DNA from: a virus
Taxonomy: Duplodnaviria; Caudoviricetes
Reading direction: 5' to 3' (one strand)
IMG/VR virus record: IMGVR_UViG_3300026549_000043
Location: 32,001 to 96,000 of that record
Length of the DNA: 64,000 nt
The notes under the pieces are model-generated. The model did not search any database. It had not been told where the DNA came from and was given only the letters and a program-made list of their open reading frames with translations. A program made the translations under genes and the position numbers. Positions 1,533-17,255 of this stretch are shown here, in pieces. Each line of letters starts with the position of its first letter. Positions within the stretch are counted from its first letter, which is position 1.

Positions 1533-2222
1533 ATGCCGTATATTAGTAGAGAAGAATTTTTAAAAAGACAGAAGGAAAGACAGGAAAGATCTAATAATTT
1601 TCAGAATTCAGGCCCAAGAGTTAGTTATTTTTCATTAAAAAATGATGGAGATGAAGCCGTTGTAAGATTTGCTTACACTTCACCTGAAGAACTTTATAAT
1701 GATATTTTCCCAACACATCAGACTACCATTGATGGAAAGTTCAGAAGAGTAAAATGCTTAAGAGAAAGTTATAACTCTCCAATTAAGGACTGCCCAATGT
1801 GTGCTGCAGGAATTCCAGTAAGTGAAAGATTTTATATTAGATTAGTAGAATATACTATGAATGATGCTGGAGATATTGAATTAACACCTAAGGTTTGGGA
1901 AAGACCAACTAGTTATGTATCAACCTTAAATGATTTCTTTGATGAATATGGAGATATCTCTGAAATGGTATTCAAGGTTAAGAGATCAGGTGAGAAGGGA
2001 TCTTTACAGACTACATATTCAATTTTACCAGCAAATCAGAAGATCTATAATGAAAGTTTATACCCAGTAGATTTCTCTGCATTTAAAGAATATTCTGTAG
2101 TAGGTAATGCTTTAACAGAAAAAGATGCTGATGGCATGTTAGAATTATTAGGAAACACTAAGGATTCTAAAGAAGAACCAGCTGAAGTAATTACTGCTAC
2201 ACCAAGAAGAGTAACTTATTAA
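1533..2222 (+). CDS. Single-stranded DNA-binding protein, T4 gp32-like
   Basis: VRF...H...C...CPMC zinc ligands, acidic tail, located between primase and polymerase. Confidence 0.75.
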   Translation: MPYISREEFLKRQKERQERSNNFQNSGPRVSYFSLKNDGDEAVVRFAYTSPEELYNDIFPTHQTTIDGKFRRVKCLRESYNSPIKDCPMCAAGIPVSERFYIRLVEYTMNDAGDIELTPKVWERPTSYVSTLNDFFDEYGDISEMVFKVKRSGEKGSLQTTYSILPANQKIYNESLYPVDFSAFKEYSVVGNALTEKDADGMLELLGNTKDSKEEPAEVITATPRRVTY

Positions 2223-2248
2223 AAAAGACCTAACGGTCTTTTTTTTTT
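2222..2248 (+). terminator. Intrinsic terminator
   Basis: AAAAAGACC-TAAC-GGTCTTTTT hairpin followed by a T run. Confidence 0.8.
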
Positions 2249-2305
2249 AGTTTACATAAACTGTATAAATATGTTAGTATTAATATACTAAAAGAGGGTA
2301 TTTAA

Positions 2306-5047
2306 ATGGAAAAAATTATTCAACAAAGTCTTTTTGGTGCAAATTTTGACATTATTTTAAATAATGATAAAACTGATAAGATAATAAAAAAATTAAAGAA
2401 ACCAAAAGATCTATCTGAAGTTAGTACAGATAAATTCTTGAAGTCTAAAAATATTTCTATTGGGGAGAAGATAAAAAGAGTTACTGAAGACGTCAACCGT
2501 ATCTTGGGTAATTATAAAAATGATACTATAGTAATTAAGTCTGAAGATGAATTAAAAAATTATATCGATAAGGCTATTTCTAATGGAGTTATTTCAGTCG
2601 ATACAGAAACAAATAATTCTTTAGACCCTTTAACATGTAAGATTATGGGTTTATGTATATATACTCCAGGTGAAAAGAACGCTTATGTACCAGTTAATCA
2701 TATTAATTTAAATACTAAAGAGAAATTACCAAATCAGGTAACTGAAGAAGAAATCAATCACCAGTTAACTAGATTATTAGAAAATAAAACAAAATGTATA
2801 TTTCATAATGGTAAATTTGATTACATGGTAATTTATTATACTTGTGGGGTTAAACTACCAATTGATTGGGATACGATGATAGGCTCACAGATCTTAAATG
2901 AAAATGAACCAGCCGGATTGAAATATCAATATAAGAATAAAATTAACCCGGATCAAGATAAATATTCAATCGAACACCTATTCCAGGGTATGGAATATGC
3001 AATTTTTGATCCAGAATTATTTGCATTATATGCAGCCACTGATGCCTATATGACTTATAAATTATATGAATATCAAAAGAAAGAATTTGAAAAGAATGGC
3101 AATGAAAGACTATATAATCTATTTCTTAATATTGAGATGCCTGTAGTAACGGTTACTGCAGAAATGGAATCTAGAGGAATCGCCGTAGATAAAGAATTTG
3201 CTAAAAGACTTAGTACAAAATTCCATAAAAAACTAGATAATTTAAATGAGGTTATTAGTAAAGAAATGGAAAAATATCAAGATACTATTAATGAATGGAG
3301 ATTGTCAGTCGAAGCCAATAGGCATGAAGTTAAAAATGGTAAAACTCAAAAATCTTTAAGTGAAAAATTATCAGACCCGGTAGAACTTACATCGGCCACT
3401 CAATTAGGTATTCTATTATATGATGTTTTAAGAGTATTAAAAGTTGGAAGCGATGGCAAGAAAACTACCGATGAAGCTACATTATTATCTATAAAAGATA
3501 CTTTGCCATTAGCTTCTCTAATCTTAAAAAAGAGGGAATACGAAAAATATTTAGGAACTTATATTGATGTGTTGCCTACATATTGTAACCCTAGAGATGG
3601 CCGAGTACATGCTCACTTTAATCAATTAGGTAGAGAAGATAGAAACGTAGTAACAGGTAGAATGTCAAGCTCTGATCCATCATTACAGGTTATCCCTGCT
3701 AGAGGTGATATTGTAACGGTTAGAATGATGTTTGTAGCTACAACTGAGTATCCCGAAATTAAACCAATTAATGACCATTATGAAGTACCAATAGAAAATG
3801 AAGTCCTATTAAAAAGCAATGAATATAAATGGTCTTCATACCTAGAACCAGGAGATATTTTAGAAAATGGTAATAAGGTGTCTAGAATTAATGTTAAAGA
3901 AAAATTAGTAGAAATTTATTATACTGGTAATAGCGAGGTACTTAAAACTCGTAGACGTTATAAACTGTGTGGTAATGACTACTCAGCTCAGGAAGTTAGA
4001 ATGTTTGCTCAGAACACACAAGATCCTTCAATGATTAATGTTTTTAAAGAAGGTAGAGACTTATATTCTGAGGTAGCTTCAATGGTTTACCATCTTCCTT
4101 ATTATGAATGTACTGAATTTAATGATAAGGGTGAATTTAATCTTGAAGGTAAACAAAGAAGAACGAAGTGTAAAAGTTTAATTCTTGGTCTTCAATATGG
4201 ACGTGGTATTAAATCAATCGCTGAACAAATTAAAGCTCATGATGGACCAGTTAATAAAGAAGATATTGCTGAAGCAAAGAAATTATCTGATGACTTCTTT
4301 ACTCACTACCCAAAGGCCAAGGAATGGATGGATAATAATAAGAAGAAGGCTCGTGAGGTTGGGTATGTAGAGGATTTATGGGGCAGACGTAGAAGATTAC
4401 CTGATGCTTCATTACCAAAATATGAATTTTCTCTATTAAATGAAAAAGAGTTATTTAATCCATTATTAAATACTCCAGTCAGAAAATTAGAAGTTGATAA
4501 AAAATTAATTAATAGATATACCGAATTGTTGGATAAAACTAAAAGTTTATCTGAAAGAGAATCTGTCATTAAATCAGCTAAAAAGGATAATCTTTCAATT
4601 AAAAGCAATTCAGGTTATATAGCTCAGGCTGAAAGGCAGGCCATCAATGCTCCAATTCAGGGTGGATCTGCCACAATGACAAAATTGGCTATGAGGAATA
4701 TGTATTATGACCAAGAATTAAAAGATTTAGATTTTCATTTATTAATTCCAGTTCATGATGAAATTATTGCTGAAGCTCCATTATGGAATATTGATAAAGC
4801 AGTTGATAGGATGGCTTACATTATGATTCACGCAGGTGAGCCTGAATGCGAAGTACAGATGAAATGTGATGGAGATTCATTCTATCGTTGGTATGAGGAT
4901 GTCTTTAAGGCCCATGTAAAGGAAGAGTTTGAAGAACATATAAAAAATGGCTTCAGCAAGGAAGAGGCAATTAAAATGGTTCAGGAAGTAAATTCTGAGT
5001 GTACCATCGAAGAAATAGAAGGGTATATCTCAGAATTAAACCTTTAG
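2306..5047 (+). CDS. polA: Family A DNA polymerase (3'-5' exonuclease + polymerase) with ~70-aa insert
   Basis: DTET (ExoI), HNGKFD, YAATD, TGRMSS, DYSAQE (motif A), K..ILGLQYG (motif B), VHDE (motif C); N-terminal QQSLF. Confidence 0.95.
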   Translation: MEKIIQQSLFGANFDIILNNDKTDKIIKKLKKPKDLSEVSTDKFLKSKNISIGEKIKRVTEDVNRILGNYKNDTIVIKSEDELKNYIDKAISNGVISVDTETNNSLDPLTCKIMGLCIYTPGEKNAYVPVNHINLNTKEKLPNQVTEEEINHQLTRLLENKTKCIFHNGKFDYMVIYYTCGVKLPIDWDTMIGSQILNENEPAGLKYQYKNKINPDQDKYSIEHLFQGMEYAIFDPELFALYAATDAYMTYKLYEYQKKEFEKNGNERLYNLFLNIEMPVVTVTAEMESRGIAVDKEFAKRLSTKFHKKLDNLNEVISKEMEKYQDTINEWRLSVEANRHEVKNGKTQKSLSEKLSDPVELTSATQLGILLYDVLRVLKVGSDGKKTTDEATLLSIKDTLPLASLILKKREYEKYLGTYIDVLPTYCNPRDGRVHAHFNQLGREDRNVVTGRMSSSDPSLQVIPARGDIVTVRMMFVATTEYPEIKPINDHYEVPIENEVLLKSNEYKWSSYLEPGDILENGNKVSRINVKEKLVEIYYTGNSEVLKTRRRYKLCGNDYSAQEVRMFAQNTQDPSMINVFKEGRDLYSEVASMVYHLPYYECTEFNDKGEFNLEGKQRRTKCKSLILGLQYGRGIKSIAEQIKAHDGPVNKEDIAEAKKLSDDFFTHYPKAKEWMDNNKKKAREVGYVEDLWGRRRRLPDASLPKYEFSLLNEKELFNPLLNTPVRKLEVDKKLINRYTELLDKTKSLSERESVIKSAKKDNLSIKSNSGYIAQAERQAINAPIQGGSATMTKLAMRNMYYDQELKDLDFHLLIPVHDEIIAEAPLWNIDKAVDRMAYIMIHAGEPECEVQMKCDGDSFYRWYEDVFKAHVKEEFEEHIKNGFSKEEAIKMVQEVNSECTIEEIEGYISELNL

Positions 5048-5811: not shown

Positions 5812-6441
5812 ATGAATACTTCGGATATTAAGTTTAATGGTGAAATTAAATCATTTGACGAACTCTTTAAAGCTGCTAGAGAACAATTTTTATTATATGA
5901 AAAATTAGAAGGAATAGATGACTGGGAAAAATATGATTTCTCAATTGACTGTTCAGCAGACCAGATGAAGTTTAAAGATATGATCCAGATTAGATTCATT
6001 GAAGAATTAACTGAAGCGTCTATGGCCTTAGAAGATCCACCAGAACATTTCTGGGAAGAAATAGGCGATGCTTTAAATTTCTTCTTATCAGCCTATGTTA
6101 TGTTAGGTGTAGATTTTAAAAAATTACCTGATCCACAAAAGATTCTTACTAGACATGAATATGCTATACATAAAATAAGAATTATTCATCGTGACGAATA
6201 TTCTCTGAAGGTGTATCCTATTATTGAAGATGTGGGAAGCTTATGTAATTTATTAAAAAATAGGCCTTGGTCACAAAGTAATTTTTTAGTATCGATGACT
6301 GATTTTAATCAAAGACTTGAAAAATTATGGGTTGATTTCTGGGAATTATTTAATTATATGAGAGTTAGTCCAGAGGAAGTATTTGAAATGTTTTGGAAAA
6401 AATATCAAGTAAACATTCATAGAATAGAAACGGGGTATTAA
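5812..6441 (+). CDS. All-alpha NTP pyrophosphatase (dimeric dUTPase/dCTPase, MazG-like)
   Basis: FIEELTEA...EEIGDALNFF metal motifs; C-terminal K..VN..R..GY. Confidence 0.75.
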   Translation: MNTSDIKFNGEIKSFDELFKAAREQFLLYEKLEGIDDWEKYDFSIDCSADQMKFKDMIQIRFIEELTEASMALEDPPEHFWEEIGDALNFFLSAYVMLGVDFKKLPDPQKILTRHEYAIHKIRIIHRDEYSLKVYPIIEDVGSLCNLLKNRPWSQSNFLVSMTDFNQRLEKLWVDFWELFNYMRVSPEEVFEMFWKKYQVNIHRIETGY

Positions 6442-13313: not shown

Positions 13314-13496
13314 ATGAGATTCTATGTTTTATTTAATAAAAACAAAATGTTATTTTTTAATTCTGTTTTTGAATCTGAGAGAAAAGCTTTAGAATTAGAA
13401 AAAAATCCAAAGATTTATTATTTAGAATATGGAATTGTTAATTACGATGGTTGGATAAATTCCATTATAGCAGTACTTAAATGTGAGGAGAATTAA
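13314..13496 (+). CDS. Hypothetical protein
   Basis: GAGGT RBS; coupled to dnaX. Confidence 0.55.
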   Translation: MRFYVLFNKNKMLFFNSVFESERKALELEKNPKIYYLEYGIVNYDGWINSIIAVLKCEEN

Positions 13497-14506
13497 TGAG
13501 CATTTCTTTATCAATTAAATATAGGCCAACTGATTTTGATCAAGTTGTTTTCCAAGAGCCTGTGATTAAAATTTTAAATCAACAGATACAAACAAATTCC
13601 TTTGTAAATTGTTATATGTTTGTGGGACCATCTGGTTGTGGGAAGACTACTATGGCTAGAATTATGGCAAATAAAATAAATAAAGGACTAGGGAGTCCAA
13701 TTGAAATCGACGCTGCTAGTAATAATGGTGTTGATAATGTAAGATTGATTATAGAACAAGCCGATCAAAGATCTCTTGATTCTGAATATAAAATCTACAT
13801 TATCGATGAATGTCATATGCTTACTACTCAGGCCTGGAGTGCTTTATTAAAGTTAATTGAAGAGCCTCCAAAGTATACTATTTTTATGTTCTGTACTACT
13901 GAAATCCAAAAGGTACCTGAAACTATAAAAAATAGATGCCAGCAGTTTAAGCTAAAGAGAATACCTCTTAATCTGATAAAAGATAGACTAGAACATATTT
14001 GTAAAATAGAGAAAATAAATTATTCAGATGAAGGACTAGACCAGATATCTAAATTATCTCTGGGAAGTATGAGGCAAGCTATTTCTTATTTAGATAAGTG
14101 CAAGGATTATTCTGATAAAGTAGACCTTGAAAATACTTTGCAGGTCTTAGGTAATTTCAGTTACGATATTTATTTTAGATTAATAAATGCTATTATTGAT
14201 AAGAATAAGAATGAGATTATTACAGTAATTGAAACTTTATATAATAATGGTGATGATTTAAAATTATTTATAGATTTATTATTAGATTTTACATTAGATT
14301 TAACTAAGTTTATTATTTTTAAATCATATGATATTATTAAAATACCTCAAACGTATAAGAAAGAAATAGAATATACAATCAACGTAGAAAATCCAGGAAA
14401 ATATTATAATCATTTGATTGATAAAATTCTAGAATTAAAACAATTAATTAAAAATGATACCCTGGATAAAACTTCAATTGAAGTATTTCTATTATCAAGA
14501 ATTTAA
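13496..14506 (+). CDS. dnaX: Clamp loader ATPase, DNA polymerase III gamma/tau-like
   Basis: KYRP, GPSGCGKT, EIDAASN, IIDECH, LLKLIEEPP, NRC. Confidence 0.93.
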   Translation: MSISLSIKYRPTDFDQVVFQEPVIKILNQQIQTNSFVNCYMFVGPSGCGKTTMARIMANKINKGLGSPIEIDAASNNGVDNVRLIIEQADQRSLDSEYKIYIIDECHMLTTQAWSALLKLIEEPPKYTIFMFCTTEIQKVPETIKNRCQQFKLKRIPLNLIKDRLEHICKIEKINYSDEGLDQISKLSLGSMRQAISYLDKCKDYSDKVDLENTLQVLGNFSYDIYFRLINAIIDKNKNEIITVIETLYNNGDDLKLFIDLLLDFTLDLTKFIIFKSYDIIKIPQTYKKEIEYTINVENPGKYYNHLIDKILELKQLIKNDTLDKTSIEVFLLSRI

Positions 14507-15053: not shown

Positions 15054-15085
15054 TTTATATTTTACATTCCATAATGTATAATAAT
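15051..15085 (+). promoter_or_regulatory. Early/sigma-A-type promoter (TAGTTTA...TATAAT) upstream of the RNA island
   Basis: Member of a motif family seen more than 12 times in the window. Confidence 0.65.
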
Positions 15086-15104: not shown

Positions 15105-15362
15105 TGGGTCAAACTCTTCGGAGTCATTTATGAGGTAATCATATATCACATAACTGTAAGGTAATGCAGAAAACAAAGGTTTTAGAGGTGTGTCAAAATC
15201 TGGGGATAACAGTTTGTAATATGATTACATTTACAGGTACGAGTCTTCCTTGTCTAAACATTAGGCCGTGACCTTAAAGGAAATGCTACCCTGAGTTGCA
15301 ATATGGAAACTCTAAAGCTAGTGTGGCCACACGATCAGTTAGATCTCTGAATAAAAGATCAA
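15105..15362 (+). ncRNA. Unassigned structured RNA
   Basis: GTAATCATAT...AACTGT pairs with ACAGTT...ATATGATTAC; ACTC-TTCG-GAGT tetraloop; no credible ORF. Confidence 0.45.
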
Positions 15363-15365
15363 CAT

Positions 15366-15463
15366 ACCTCGGTCTTACTGTCCGGTGACAGGAACGGTCT
15401 TCAAAATCGTAGGACACGGGTCCAACCGTGTTTATGAGGGCTCGACACCTTCCCGAGGTGCCA
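15366..15463 (+). tRNA. tRNA with UCA anticodon, Sec-like architecture (opal decoder)
   Basis: Acceptor ACCTCGG/CCGAGGT + G + CCA; D arm CTGTC-CGGT-GACAG; anticodon arm ACGGT-CTTCAAA-ATCGT; long variable arm ACACGG/CCGTGT; T arm GAGGG-CTCGACA-CCTTC; 98 nt. Confidence 0.85.
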
Positions 15464-15466
15464 TTT

Positions 15467-15541
15467 AGATCTTTGGTGTAATGGTAGCACAGCAGTCTCC
15501 AAAACTGTTAGGTGTGGGTTCAAGTCCTACAGGGTCTGCCA
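15467..15541 (+). tRNA. tRNA-Trp(CCA)
   Basis: Cloverleaf; anticodon loop CTCCAAA; GGTTCAAGTCC; ends GCCA. Confidence 0.93.
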
Positions 15542-15544
15542 GTT

Positions 15545-16200
15545 TACTCTCACCATACACTGAACGTATGCGTAATAAAGGTTCTACACCGTTCCTAACG
15601 GGTAAATCCTAGCGAAAGCTAAAAACGGTGTTTTCTTTGACAATAAATCTGCAATATGGACTATGACAGGTACCACTTAAAAGTCATAGAGAGACTCACT
15701 GGACAGAAAACCAGTCTGACGACAGAACGTCAGAGACAAATACCACCAAAATAGGAATAGTAAATGGTTTGCAAGTATAGAGTCTAAGCAGATTTAGAAT
15801 AAACCGCAGGAAGTGTGTAGCGGTATAGTAAGTGTCAAACATCTTCTGGTAGGGTGCAGACTCATAACAAAGAATCAGCCACTATCGTCGAATCCTATAG
15901 CCCATGGCTCTAATGGACTATGCGTGAAAGCCTGAAAAGGATAAAAAGAGCCTGAAACGCTAGGTAAAAATGAAGGTATAGGCATCGAGCCAACATTCAA
16001 TTAGTTGCCAAGACCTTAAGAAATGTTAGAGGTCTGAAATCTCAAGATAAAACTGGTGGTGCAGCCTTGAGTAAGTAATGCGAAACGTGCCTTCTGGGGC
16101 TTGCATTGTGCAAGCGACCACCAATAGGGCGGGTGGTAAAACATAGGCCGACTTCCTTGCTTAGAACGCTGAACGTAGGCGTGGATGAAGAAAGACTAAG
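15545..16200 (+). ncRNA. Large unassigned structured RNA region
   Basis: Richer in GC than flanks; many hairpins (TAGC-GAAA-GCTA, CTATGAC/GTCATAG, TCTGACG/CGTCAGA, TAAATCTGC/GCAGATTTA); lies between tRNAs; no credible CDS. Confidence 0.5.
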
Positions 16201-16203
16201 TAA

Positions 16204-16288
16204 CTTAACAGTGGTGGAATAGGTAGACACTGGGCAATGGTCGACTTGTCGAAGGAAATTATAAGGTGCAAATCCTTATCTGTTAAGA
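16204..16288 (+). ncRNA. tRNA-like RNA (Leu-type D arm, T arm, no canonical anticodon arm)
   Basis: CTTAACAG/CTGTTAAG stem; TGGTGGAATAGGTAGACAC; ATAAGG-TGCAAAT-CCTTAT. Confidence 0.55.
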
Positions 16289-16378
16289 TAGCTTACGAGT
16301 AACAAATAAACAAACTAGCCGTGGCGAGCTAGGTCGGTGAATATCGACTACAAGTGGTTCGACCCCACCGTAAGCTAT
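16288..16378 (+). ncRNA. tRNA-like RNA lacking a D arm
   Basis: ATAGCTTACG/CGTAAGCTAT 10-bp closing stem, two internal hairpins, GTGG-TTCGACC-CCAC T arm. Confidence 0.55.
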
Positions 16379-16385
16379 ATCATAC

Positions 16386-16876
16386 GTCAGGAGATGTTGA
16401 TTTAAGTCCAACCACTCAGACTGGTTAGAGCCTGAACGAGTGTAGTTTAAGAAAAATCCTGACAAAGTGTTGGTAGACAAGCATTAAAAGTCACTAAGAC
16501 AATAGGAGCTGCGTACATGGTTAAATTGGTGGGTAAGACACCCATACCACAGCAGATGCGTGTGATTGAAACTGCACACCCAACACTATTTCGTTTGGCA
16601 GTGTTCGAGAATAACTGCACACAAAGGGTTCACGATGGTACCTTACTTCACAACCTAGAGCAGTAAAGAAATGCCACAATAGGGCAAAGTAAAGAGACTA
16701 AAGGTAAATCGTTGTAAAAATGGTGATGAAATTGTTGCTCGTCTACGCGCGTAGAAAGAGTATCAGGAGCGTTTAGGCGTTCCTTGCAGTAGCAAATGGC
16801 CTCACGTACAGTACAGTTGGTCAACAGGTAGTAATGGTGCTGCCTGACCAGTGTTGGTTAGCAAAGCTGTACTTTA
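16386..16876 (+). ncRNA. Tandem stem-closed small RNA modules
   Basis: Closing stems GTCAGGA/TCCTGAC, AGTGTTGG/CCAACACT and AGTACAG/CTGTACT with internal hairpins. Confidence 0.4.
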
Positions 16877-16880
16877 ACAT

Positions 16881-16951
16881 TTCTCCGTCGTCTAATGGCA
16901 GGACATCTCACTTTGACTGAGACAATAGTTGTTCAACTCAACTCGGAGAAG
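16881..16951 (+). tRNA. tRNA-Gln(TTG), no encoded CCA
   Basis: TTCTCCG/CGGAGAA; TCTCA-CTTTGAC-TGAGA; GTTCAAC T loop. Confidence 0.88.
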
Positions 16952-16952
16952 C

Positions 16953-17026
16953 GCCGGATTAGTATAAAAGTATTACACCTGTCTTGTAAACAGGATAAAG
17001 CGGGGCAGTACCGTTATCCGGCCCCA
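16953..17026 (+). tRNA. tRNA-Thr(TGT)
   Basis: GCCGGAT/ATCCGGC + C + CCA; CCTGT-CTTGTAA-ACAGG; atypical T loop GGCAGTA. Confidence 0.85.
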
Positions 17027-17045
17027 CTAGAAAAGGAGATTCACT

Positions 17046-17255
17046 ATTAAAGACAAGATTAGAGTATCTGGCACAATCATAGATGTCTTGCCAGGAGATA
17101 AGTTCAAGATTCTTTTATCTAATGAGAGTGAAGTCATTGGGTATTTGTCTGGTAAGATAAGAAAGAATAGGATTAAAATTGTTGAAGGAGATTCTGTAGA
17201 CATAGAATTGTCTATTTATGACTTGTCTAAAGGTAGAATAGTATATAGGAATTAA
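17046..17255 (+). CDS. infA: Translation initiation factor IF-1 with ATT start (not in ORF track)
   Basis: KDKIRVSGTIIDVLPGDKFKILLSNESEVIGYLSGKIRKNRIKIVEGDSVDIELSIYDLSKGRIVYR is a clear IF-1; AAGGAG 7 nt before ATT. Confidence 0.88.
   Translation: MKDKIRVSGTIIDVLPGDKFKILLSNESEVIGYLSGKIRKNRIKIVEGDSVDIELSIYDLSKGRIVYRN

Follow-up and report, generated by a model that had tools for sequence, protein, structure and literature searches.

The tRNA gene cluster of phage T4 encodes two non-tRNA RNAs of ~120-140 nt, species 1 and species 2 (rnaC and rnaD), which are co-transcribed with the tRNAs and released by host tRNA-processing nucleases. We know of no function for these two RNAs, nor for ROOL or GOLLD. 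ROOL and GOLLD are large structured RNAs of phages and prophages that are often encoded beside tRNA islands; ROOL was first found in rumen data, the variable linker of GOLLD can hold tRNAs, and both RNAs assemble through kissing loops (PMC12286853). Covariation that preserves a palindrome in a loop serves as evidence for symmetric intermolecular kissing loops in OLE and GOLLD (PMC12286853).

Here we describe an island of real, conserved and folded non-coding RNA, belonging to no known family, in a large cattle-rumen phage; the window analysed is a stretch of 64,000 nucleotides of its DNA. Like T4 species 1 and 2, the modules of the island are non-tRNA RNAs inside a phage tRNA operon and on the tRNA strand; unlike the two RNAs of T4, they number a dozen over 1.3 kb, one of them with a putative self-pairing loop, and the likeness is one of description, no sequence relation being expected. 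As in GOLLD, ROOL and OLE, one loop of the island (in the module named A2) bears the signature of a symmetric kissing loop, as seen in sequences alone. Unlike GOLLD and ROOL, the island gains and loses blocks between closely related phages, and two of these blocks are also met singly in other phages; unlike all three, it has no single conserved multi-domain architecture, and no long-range covarying pairings were found in it. We lean towards the hypothesis that the island is a non-coding stretch of the tRNA operon, co-transcribed as a chain of at least 12 small, separately folding modules rather than as a demonstrated giant RNA, which would be matured with the tRNAs, pair with itself through A2 and bind a partner in trans.

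Position and non-coding character of the island

An earlier note on this DNA proposed a non-coding island at 15545-16876, between tRNAs, richer in GC than its flanks, unassigned and not matched to ROOL or GOLLD, and on all these points it stands. The bordering tRNAs are recognized by both ARAGORN and Rfam, and GC content is 0.40-0.46 over 15150-17100 against 0.20-0.33 in the flanks (40-46% for the island against ~26% in an overall comparison). Because the elevated GC extends back to 15150, the island starts ~400 nt upstream of the start given in that note. The features around it are as follows.

15054-15082, + strand: promoter-like site (TTTATA-17-TATAAT), a consensus match only, upstream of the GC-rich island
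15150-15365, + strand: GC-rich leader module (from the GC profile), upstream of the UGA-reading tRNA, containing the hairpin GAUCU-CUGAAUAAA-AGAUC
15366-15459, + strand: suppressor-like tRNA(UCA), 5' neighbour of the island
15467-15541, + strand: tRNA-Trp (ARAGORN and Rfam), 5' neighbour
16881-16952, + strand: tRNA-Gln (ARAGORN and Rfam), 3' neighbour
16953-17023, + strand: second 3' tRNA (ARAGORN and Rfam), adjoining tRNA-Gln

The leader module is 80-83% identical to its counterparts in the relatives L002, L365 and L369, and the stem of its hairpin covaries (GGCU/AGCC in L002). No terminator-like site was found on the + strand between the promoter-like site and infA, nor inside the island. 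The phage that carries the island reads TGA as Trp (translation table 4).

Open reading frames on the + strand inside the island do not exceed 49 aa under table 11; under table 4 the longest frames, of up to 125 aa, lie on the opposite strand and match nothing in Pfam. Homologues carry 1-nt and other indels that are not multiples of three within the most conserved blocks, which rules out coding. By cmscan against Rfam 15, at gathering thresholds and at E<=10, no ROOL, GOLLD, intron or tmRNA match was obtained in 15545-16876, and among the island, its relatives and the short E motif described below, tRNAs alone were matched; neither ARAGORN nor the Rfam tRNA model (RF00005) makes a call inside 15545-16876. 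The ROOL model (RF03087; 574 positions, cut-off 99.1 bits) has no match, at cut-offs as loose as E<=10, in the window or anywhere in the 139,874-bp record; in a targeted ROOL search the control genomes were also blank, leaving its sensitivity unproven, and the other ROOL scans were plain cmscan. The model of the GOLLD 3' domain (RF02032; 416 positions, 150 bits) has no match in the island at E<=10. The same kind of scan picked up a sub-threshold GOLLD in another rumen phage, L100 (79.5 bits, E 4e-19), which indicates that divergent rumen GOLLDs are detectable in this way. Likewise, no tmRNA was called in the island by ARAGORN or Rfam (the acceptor of module D2 has U3-A70, without G3-U70), and the same scan picked up a true phage tmRNA in the relative L059. 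A blastn search against 50,697 records of cultured phages returned tRNA-Trp as the sole match, and searches of the literature brought up no earlier account of the motifs, although the 10,006 candidate phage RNAs of one survey (PMC10690425) were not compared sequence by sequence.

Conserved modules and their assortment among relatives

About ten related rumen phage contigs share the island. The overall identity of its blocks is 79-90%, and single blocks reach 97%, against 62-70% for dnaX, infA and other neighbouring genes among the same relatives, and several helices carry compensatory changes across these contigs (in modules A1, C, D0, D2, E0, G and Hx). The region had been described as dense in hairpins and long-range stems. 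The hairpins are upheld, though folding energy alone is unremarkable (module z-scores -3.0 to +0.9), such that the predicted structures draw their support from conservation and covariation rather than from energy. The long-range stems are not: the long inverted repeats of the window (I1, I2 and I3) were rejected because they are not kept in relatives, and the relatives' alignments revealed no covarying helix between blocks. The 5' part contains the following modules.

15554-15570, + strand: hairpin H0 (CAUAC-ACUGAAC-GUAUG), directly 3' of tRNA-Trp
15578-15640, + strand: A1, a small three-way junction with closing stem ACACCGUU/AACGGUGU and conserved joiner GUAAAUCC
15641-15692, + strand: A2 module, with the hairpin CUAUGAC/GUCAUAG at 15661-15689 and its 15-nt loop
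15669-15674, + strand: self-complementary hexamer GGUACC of the A2 loop, with palindrome-preserving switches
15693-15798, + strand: variable hairpins, replaced in relatives by different, still paired sequences
15783-15798, + strand: conserved hairpin UCUAA-GCAGAU-UUAGA, 3' of the variable hairpins
15799-15967, + strand: B, an optional block common to L063 alone (95% identity)
15968-16100, + strand: C, present in every relative, with an outer stem, one hairpin that is swapped between types and a pair of inner helices that cross each other

In relatives, H0 has an altered stem (ACGU...ACGU) and a similar loop. The closing stem of A1 changes in a compensatory manner to AUGCCGUU/AACGGCAU in L003 and to AGACCGUU/AACGGUCU in L100, and its first inner hairpin has compensatory changes too. 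At the site of B, other relatives have an unrelated block of ~55 nt. Compensatory pairs in C (alignment of 11 sequences) include columns 12/126, 14/124, 42/99 and 40/101, as well as the column pair 79/105, which turns from C-G to U-A; one entire hairpin of C is exchanged between two types, and its crossing inner helices may form a pseudoknot.

The proposal that the first ~650 nt are one RNA is not borne out: stretches that vary or have been inserted lie between A1, A2, B and C, some relatives having an AT-rich insert, seemingly with an ORF, between A1 and A2; B is confined to a single relative; and in L100 A1 occurs by itself, adjoining an E motif and a tRNA (in a gapped pattern scan for A1, L100 was the only match outside the family). 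The order A1-A2-C is constant in nearly all relatives, and these modules are the constant core of the family; in view of this core and the palindromic A2 loop, the 5' part may yet be an ornate, self-associating RNA. The 3' half, by comparison, is a series of stem-closed modules as had been suggested.

16101-16203, + strand: D0, three hairpins within the stem CUUAG/CUAAG, with five compensatory pairs in 5 sequences
16204-16287, + strand: D1, tRNA-Leu-like, with an 8-bp acceptor, a Leu-type D arm and a T arm but without a normal anticodon arm
16289-16377, + strand: D2, tRNA-like, with a 9-bp acceptor stacking on a T arm of 4 bp whose loop, UUCGACC, is canonical
16387-16461, + strand: E0, a three-way junction with closing stem UCAGGA/UCCUGA and a hairpin resembling a T arm (7-nt loop UUUAAGU)
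16597-16619, + strand: hairpin Hx, with a conserved 13-nt loop (A/U)GUNCGAGAAUAA
16622-16732, + strand: F, closed by ACGAU..UACCUU / AAGGUA..AUCGU, a predicted closing helix that is invariant
16737-16872, + strand: three local hairpins, followed by G (16806-16872), closed by GUACAG/CUGUAC

Compensatory replacements in D0 include CUCAG/CUGAG and ACUACC/GGUAGU. D1 yields weak profile matches to Leu/Ser-type tRNAs and is called by neither ARAGORN nor the Rfam tRNA model; in L002 the position of its anticodon arm holds 92 nt, against 30 nt in the window. In D2 (folding z -3.05), the D arm is replaced by an A-rich strand; the module is 95-96% identical in L002, L369 and L365 and has one compensatory change in the acceptor stem. 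D1 and D2 (16204-16377) are tRNA look-alikes that lack an anticodon. In E0 the T-arm-like stem is swapped whole, from GUUGG/CCAAC to ACAGG/CCUGU, while its loop is kept as UUYRARY in seven sequences. The stem of Hx covaries (GGCAG/CUGCC, GGUAG/CUACC, GAUAG/CUAUC); its position varies, and L066/L064 have two copies. F is 90-93% identical in L003, L004, L063 and L066 and absent from L002, L365 and L369; its inner hairpin covaries (UGCC/GGCA to UGAC/GUCA), and an 85-nt insert is tolerated in L004. In G (z -2.5), a closing pair changes from G-C to A-U and an inner stem from CAGG/CCUG to CGGG/CCCG. The few relatives hardly differ from one another in B, in F and over much of C, so that the folds there are predicted ones.

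The gain and loss of blocks is independent among relatives: D0-D2 with E0 and E are found in the window, L002, L369, L365 and L373; F and G in the window, L003, L004, L063 and L066; and B in the window and L063 only. The Leu-type D arm and T arm retained in D1, together with the acceptor-plus-T-arm geometry of D2, E0 and E, might bring to mind functionless, decaying remnants of a former tRNA array. This idea is scarcely credible and is refuted by conservation and covariation: nucleotide identity lies far above that of the neighbouring genes, most modules have compensatory changes, and loops are invariant across distant phages.

The E motif in other phages

One module of the 3' half, the E motif, is found well outside the family.

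16462-16592, + strand: E motif, a four-way junction of P1 (8 bp), P2 (3 bp), P3 (a long variable arm) and P4 (5 bp)

It has an invariant P2 loop (AAGCAUUAAAA), the joiner UAAGACAAUAG and a near-invariant P4 loop (AUUGAAACUG). Covariance model R1 gives 59 hits in 52 distinct phage sequences, 44 of which are distinct non-seed hits independent of the 8 seeds; the window's own motif (16462-16592) reaches 118.4 bits along the entire model by construction, as it is among those seeds. Across the hits 94.1% of cells pair (26-45% in slid controls), and 22 of the 23 pairs have compensatory changes. Among 185,579 species genomes, a pattern scan returned 107 stretches, with the complete motif in only 2 contigs, both probable phage; the matches of a looser 14-base pattern were mostly due to chance. 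The E motif is a four-way junction that is widespread in gut phages, phage-specific and uncatalogued. Two further pairings within it were considered: one between GCAU of the P2 loop and AUGC of the joiner was rejected, because the joiner varies and the loop is invariant, and a pseudoknot between CAAU (J2/3) and AUUG (P4 loop) is weakened by C-to-A variants.

The motif always lies on the strand of the tRNAs, has tRNAs within 2 kb in 20 of 28 loci, and often fills a "tRNA slot", as in L196, where it fits between tRNA-Val and tRNA-Ser with spacers of 3 and 5 nt. Like tRNAs, the tRNA-like domain of tmRNA and YrlA, the modules D1 (16204-16287), D2 (16289-16377) and E (16466-16587) have a terminal stem of 7-9 bp on a T-arm-like hairpin, and in E, moreover, the terminal stem is followed by a U and a purine, the D-like stem has 3 bp, and P4 is preceded by a joiner of 4-5 nt. 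Unlike tRNA and tmRNA, all three lack an anticodon arm, G3-U70 and a model match (the tRNA model does not match the 111-nt E motif even when this is searched alone), and E lacks an encoded CCA, which is present in all the tRNAs of the E-motif loci L196, L219, L100, L130, L214 and L223. Two A-rich invariant loops of the motif, UUAAAAG and UUGAAAC, are complementary to the anticodon loop of tRNA-Lys(UUU) and partly to that of tRNA-Glu(UUC); this complementarity is a lead only, as by a rough estimate some four in ten loops of such composition would match by chance.

In other phages the E motif also stands by itself, even with its own promoter-like site, and some copies have a ribosome-binding site and an ORF 10-50 nt downstream. 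This last arrangement would suit a role in cis, in which the modules are not stable functional RNAs but elements of folding, processing or stability that tune how much of the flanking tRNAs is made or how infA is translated; that the island always has the suppressor tRNA on one side and tRNA-Gln on the other, and shares a transcription unit with infA downstream, fits as well. (The UGA-reading tRNA would be a notable target of such yield control.) We nevertheless consider a cis role highly unlikely: the E-motif loops of 10-11 nt are invariant across 52 sequences in many different contexts, which argues for a common partner in trans, the genes downstream are heterogeneous, a self-complementary kissing loop has no obvious role in cis, and 1.3 kb far exceeds the spacers of tRNA arrays (1-10 nt in L196 and L219). 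A riboswitch reading of the motif was likewise rejected, the downstream genes being unrelated.

In L066/L064, the tip of the P4 hairpin holds an HNH homing endonuclease gene (NUMOD4, HNH_3, NUMOD1), reminiscent of the homing endonuclease ORFs in group I intron loops. Self-splicing introns or other mobile RNA elements could account for this gene, and for a GAAA tetraloop and the words UAUGG / CCUAAC in A1 and A2; unlike group I introns, however, the RNA that hosts the HNH gene failed every test for an intron that was applied. Neither group I nor group II models match even at E<=10, no module is flanked by an interrupted host gene (the E motif is flanked by complete tRNAs), and contigs from RNA libraries are collinear with the DNA, without splice-like joints in the well-covered libraries X2 and X3. 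The sole "joint" there, at 16520-16547 (depth ~460), is read as a relative's shorter P3 tip and not as splicing. An intron origin is therefore largely refuted and very improbable. Library X4 contributed only fragments and variants of relatives, and regions without cover in any run were excluded from evidence. In two bovine metatranscriptome libraries the contig with the island has a k-mer depth of 76 and 155, against 5-14 for most neighbours, with DNA carry-over possible; the depth is flat (~17-19) in a DNA library, and the contrast is weak evidence because depth is one figure per contig.

The A2 loop and possible roles of the island

Among 8 distinct sequences, the hexamer in the A2 loop reads GGUACC, GGAUCC, GCCGGC or GGUGCC, every one of them self-complementary. 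In HIV-1, the dimerisation initiation site is a loop with a six-base self-complementary word flanked by purines, the variants of which stay self-complementary. The A2 loop can be likened to this site and to the intermolecular loop contacts of phi29 pRNA, but it lies in the tRNA operon of a DNA phage, has 15 nt, and its pairing is predicted from comparison of sequences. With this palindrome-preserving covariation, it is a candidate intermolecular symmetric kissing loop of the kind described by the same signature (PMC12286853). A second GGUACC, at 16637-16642 in block F, is present in exactly those genomes that have GGUACC as their A2 word; neither the E motif nor module C yielded a further palindromic loop.

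These observations bear on the question of whether the entire 1.3 kb, or at least A1-C plus F and G, might be one large ornate RNA of a new class that forms homo-oligomers like GOLLD and ROOL, with the tRNA-like modules and the E motif as peripheral domains or as covalently linked cargo in a variable linker. The A2 loop covaries like a symmetric intermolecular bridge, the second GGUACC tracks it, C has its possible pseudoknot, A1, A2 and C keep their order, and the site, a rumen phage tRNA island with tRNA-like elements embedded, is one often taken by ROOL and GOLLD (the linker of GOLLD itself sometimes holding tRNAs). Against this, half of the relatives lack F and G and others lack D/E, so that no full-length architecture is fixed; E and A1 are each found alone in other phages; the AT-rich insert splits A1 from A2; and neither a covarying inter-block helix nor a match to the ROOL and GOLLD models was found. 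On balance we regard a single large RNA as rather unlikely. A more specific proposal, that A1-A2-C is a self-assembling phage RNA of a new class (forming homodimers or larger cages via the A2 kissing loop, by analogy with OLE, ROOL and GOLLD) and that D1, D2, E0 and E would be cargo or decoys for host tRNA-directed machinery, we hold to be unlikely as a whole. The anticodon nucleases of anti-phage defence are an example of such machinery.

Under the hypothesis of a chain of small modules, the island, which is encoded inside the tRNA transcription unit and on the tRNA strand, would be transcribed whole, starting at the promoter-like site near 15054-15082, together with the tRNAs on either side. 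Host tRNA-processing enzymes would then cut the transcript into stable, stem-closed RNAs, with RNase P acting at the 5' end of the next tRNA and 3' trimming acting on the preceding one. The RNA bearing A2 would pair with a second copy of itself through the kissing loop, while the invariant loops of other modules would bind a conserved partner in trans. In the most speculative step, that partner may be the translation or tRNA-surveillance machinery of the host, for which the RNAs would serve as decoys or scaffolds during infection.

Phage tRNA islands harbour puzzling RNAs, to which this locus adds the E motif, which behaves like a gene cassette in tRNA arrays; tRNA look-alikes without an anticodon arm; and a hairpin that covaries in the manner of self-associating RNAs, a pattern documented to date in few natural RNAs. 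As the modules assort independently among close relatives, the family supplies natural deletion variants for functional tests, and since the locus lies directly behind the suppressor tRNA of a phage in which UGA encodes Trp, it may be relevant to the takeover of translation by recoded phages.

Setting and non-coding character of the island

The island lies within the replication gene cluster of a 139,874-bp IMG/VR phage (estimated completeness 83%, genome G+C about 26%; the window covers bases 32001-96000 of the record) that is present in bovine gut metagenomes and metatranscriptomes; dnaX (13481-14506) is upstream, and infA, holB and holA are downstream. It is bordered by a tRNA-Trp ending at 15541 and a tRNA-Gln starting at 16881, both on the plus strand. 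An earlier note had called the stretch non-coding and richer in GC than its flanks, and both descriptions held: G+C is 0.40-0.46 over about 15150-17100 versus 0.20-0.33 outside, and, among ORFs listed under tables 11 and 4, all plus-strand frames are of 49 aa or less, the longest antisense frames (up to 125 aa, table 4) match nothing in Pfam, and relatives differ by 1-nt indels within the best conserved blocks, so the stretch is non-coding. The modules have ordinary minimum free energies (z from -3.0 to +0.9); it is the comparison with relatives, not folding energy, that supports RNA structure.

The GC-rich island begins about 400 nt upstream of position 15545, where the earlier note had started it. 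A conserved leader (15150-15365) precedes the UGA-reading tRNA; the 11-nt word UGCAAUAUGGA occurs in it at 15297 and again at 15650, in the sequence flanking hairpin A2 on its 5' side. At least six loops or joiners of the island share the word CUGAA(A/C) (15559-15565, 15346-15354, 15930-15936, 15951-15957, 16170-16176 and 16432-16438), perhaps by chance. Directly after tRNA-Gln lies a second tRNA (16953-17023; Rfam call of 43.6 bits, no ARAGORN call), with an anticodon loop that is apparently UGU and the infA ribosome-binding site at most 10 nt downstream.

The island had been left unassigned to ROOL or GOLLD, and the database searches agree: Rfam 15 returned nothing but tRNAs in the island, either at gathering scores or at E<=10, and a targeted ROOL search of the whole 139,874-bp record gave no match. 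E, A1 and the other island motifs are absent from Rfam 15 and were not found in the literature searched. Unexplained structured RNAs in phage tRNA islands are nevertheless a known kind.

Relatives and the assortment of blocks

Relatives gathered from IMG/VR (by the neighbouring DnaX protein and conserved words) and from JGI metagenomes (by one word) comprise about ten distinct versions of the island (phage contigs L002, L369, L365/L372, L366, L370, L373, L003, L004, L063 and L066/L064), all from rumen or gut samples. Where a relative's contig is long enough, the island always sits between the UGA-reading tRNA and tRNA-Gln. Overall identity across the aligned island blocks is 79-90%, and single blocks reach 97%, versus only 62-70% DNA identity for neighbouring protein genes. 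Block order is kept, while blocks are present or absent independently, and the window has the most complete set:

A1, 15578-15640, plus strand: small three-way junction; in all relatives whose contig reaches it
A2, 15641-15692: hairpin at 15661-15689, plus strand, with an invariant 7-bp stem and a 15-nt loop holding a six-base word at 15669-15674; in all relatives whose contig reaches A1, except L063
B, 15799-15967: window and L063 only
C, 15968-16100, plus strand: two types exchanging a whole hairpin (alignment of n=11); in all relatives
D0, 16101-16203: with D1, D2, E0 and E, in the window and the L002 group
D1, 16204-16287, plus strand: Leu-type D arm and T arm on an 8-bp terminal stem, without anticodon arm
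D2, 16289-16377, plus strand: 9-bp terminal stem stacked on a T arm of 4 bp, T loop canonical (UUCGACC)
E0, 16387-16461, and E motif, 16462-16592
Hx, 16597-16619 (L002:9720-9745; L066:1598-1625; second copy in L066/L064): covarying 5-bp stem, conserved 13-nt loop
F, 16622-16732, and G, 16806-16872: window, L003, L004, L063 and L066

Between blocks, hairpins are swapped in relatives for unrelated hairpins or inserts of 50-650 nt. Some relatives carry an AT-rich insert between A1 and A2 (L373, about 1900-2270, minus strand; L002:8334-8465), and that of L373, about 400 nt long, apparently opens with a ribosome-binding site and ATG. A related phage (L059:3637-4019) has a full tmRNA (91 bits) directly before a tRNA-Glu, with its dnaX lying about 2 kb downstream.

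Covariation in the collected homologues, which the earlier note had proposed as a check, is present as compensatory changes in A1 (closing stem), C, D0, D2, E0, E, G and Hx. Its claim of hairpins and long-range stems stands for the hairpins; the long inverted repeats seen in the window alone are unconserved in relatives, and no covarying helix joining different blocks was found across the island. The changes in C fall in the outer stem and in two mutually crossing inner helices, a possible pseudoknot. B and F hardly vary in the few relatives that have them, so the folds drawn for these two blocks are putative. The Hx loop reads AGUACGAGAAUAA in L002, L063 and L066 and UGUUCGAGA in the window; the first nine bases of AGUACGAGAAUAA are identical to AGUACGAGA, the sarcin-ricin loop core of 23S rRNA. 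The position of Hx shifts within the island family. These data show a locus that is non-coding and under selection and encodes structured RNA, in modules that each evolve as a unit of their own.

The E motif beyond the island family

The E motif, a four-way junction, is found outside the island family as well:

P1: closing stem
P2: 3 bp, invariant loop AAGCAUUAAAA
Joiner after P2: UAAGACAAUAG
P3: long arm, distal part variable (about 20 to 170 nt)
Joiner between P3 and P4: 4-5 nt
P4: 5 bp, loop AUUGAAACUG

A two-word pattern retrieved 56 stretches from IMG/VR, mostly rumen or gut phage contigs of 30-240 kb, and only two complete copies from 185,579 species genomes, both on short or probably mis-binned contigs. 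In a MAFFT alignment (n=28), pairing holds in 94.4% of cells, and both partners have changed in 18 of the 23 pairs; sliding the partners by 1-3 columns lowers pairing to 27-41%. A covariance model seeded with eight short members and searched against 70 loci and the window matched 59 copies (52 distinct) in the loci and one in the window, with 94.1% of cells pairing and compensatory changes in 22 of 23 pairs.

The motif lies on the tRNA strand in every locus with tRNAs, and 20 of 28 loci have tRNAs no more than 2 kb away. In L196 it takes up the space between tRNA-Val and tRNA-Ser, leaving spacers of 3 and 5 nt; in L130 it has a promoter-like site of its own. It resembles a tRNA in outline (a terminal stem stacked on a T-arm-like hairpin, U plus purine after the terminal stem, a 3-bp D-like stem), but tRNA models give it no score and it has no encoded CCA, which all neighbouring tRNAs have in six arrays. 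A riboswitch is unlikely because the downstream genes are unrelated to one another. In L066 (1025-1564) and L064, the P4 tip harbours an inserted gene for an HNH homing endonuclease (NUMOD4, HNH_3, NUMOD1), with ATTGA repeated at both borders; no test made gave support for an intron.

Downstream of two E motifs that lie outside tRNA arrays (L228:4699-5037; L223:1275-1586, minus strand) come small zinc-ribbon proteins that resemble each other (MKN.NCPNCGAP...C.YCGT). The 27-tRNA array of L196 has six more gaps of 120-270 nt without an ARAGORN call (1160-1317, 1406-1582, 2050-2174, 2248-2386, 2642-2908 and 2984-3178), which may hold further non-tRNA modules. A1 also occurs elsewhere: L100, a 161-kb rumen phage, has a lone A1 between an E motif and a tRNA. 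At least these two modules, E and A1, function outside the island setting. The same L100 tRNA array holds a sub-threshold GOLLD match (5956-6388, minus strand; 79.5 bits, E 4e-19, gathering score 150).

Transcription, proposed self-association and the nature of the RNA

A promoter-like site (15054-15082) lies upstream of the island, and no plus-strand terminator-like site was found from there to infA. RNA-library evidence consists of assembled contigs with one depth figure each. In two RNA libraries from one bovine sample, the contig carrying the island up to 16509 has k-mer depths of 76 and 155 and most neighbouring contigs 5-14, while depth in the DNA library is even, at 17-19; where relatives have only the E motif in common with the window, their contigs reach about 460. 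This weakly suggests abundant island RNA, depth being per contig, from differing samples and open to DNA carry-over. No splice-like joints were seen in the RNA-library contigs.

The A2 loop word is GGUACC in the window, L003 and L066, GGAUCC in L002 and L373, GCCGGC in L365, L366, L369, L370 and L372, and GGUGCC in L374. All four are self-complementary (GGUGCC via G-U pairs); over eight distinct sequences every cell pairs, the two inner "pairs" occurring as two and four types. Since adjacent bases of one loop cannot pair mutually, the partner must be a second copy, and in the GGAUCC and GCCGGC lineages, where the word occurs once per island, that copy must be on another molecule. The same argument from inner bases switching between palindromes was made for the symmetric kissing loops OLE L9.3 and GOLLD L21a (PMC12286853). 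Among A2-bearing relatives, F is confined to those with GGUACC in the A2 loop (window, L003, L066/L064). As F carries a second GGUACC in the window (16637-16642), L003 and L066, an A2-F contact would be an alternative in those genomes.

A constant A1-A2-C core, embedded tRNA-like elements and this kissing-loop signature would also suit a single ornate RNA of a new class, able to self-assemble and carrying variable modules as periphery or cargo, and for these reasons we keep that reading as an unlikely but serious one. Because the modules evolve separately and E and A1 function elsewhere, we favour a chain of stable RNAs that would be matured together with the flanking tRNAs, one member of which would self-associate. 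The model for this reading is the tRNA cluster of phage T4, with its two unexplained stable RNAs. A conserved partner is suggested by the invariant loops; given their place in a tRNA operon, after a suppressor tRNA, the modules may act in translation or tRNA surveillance.
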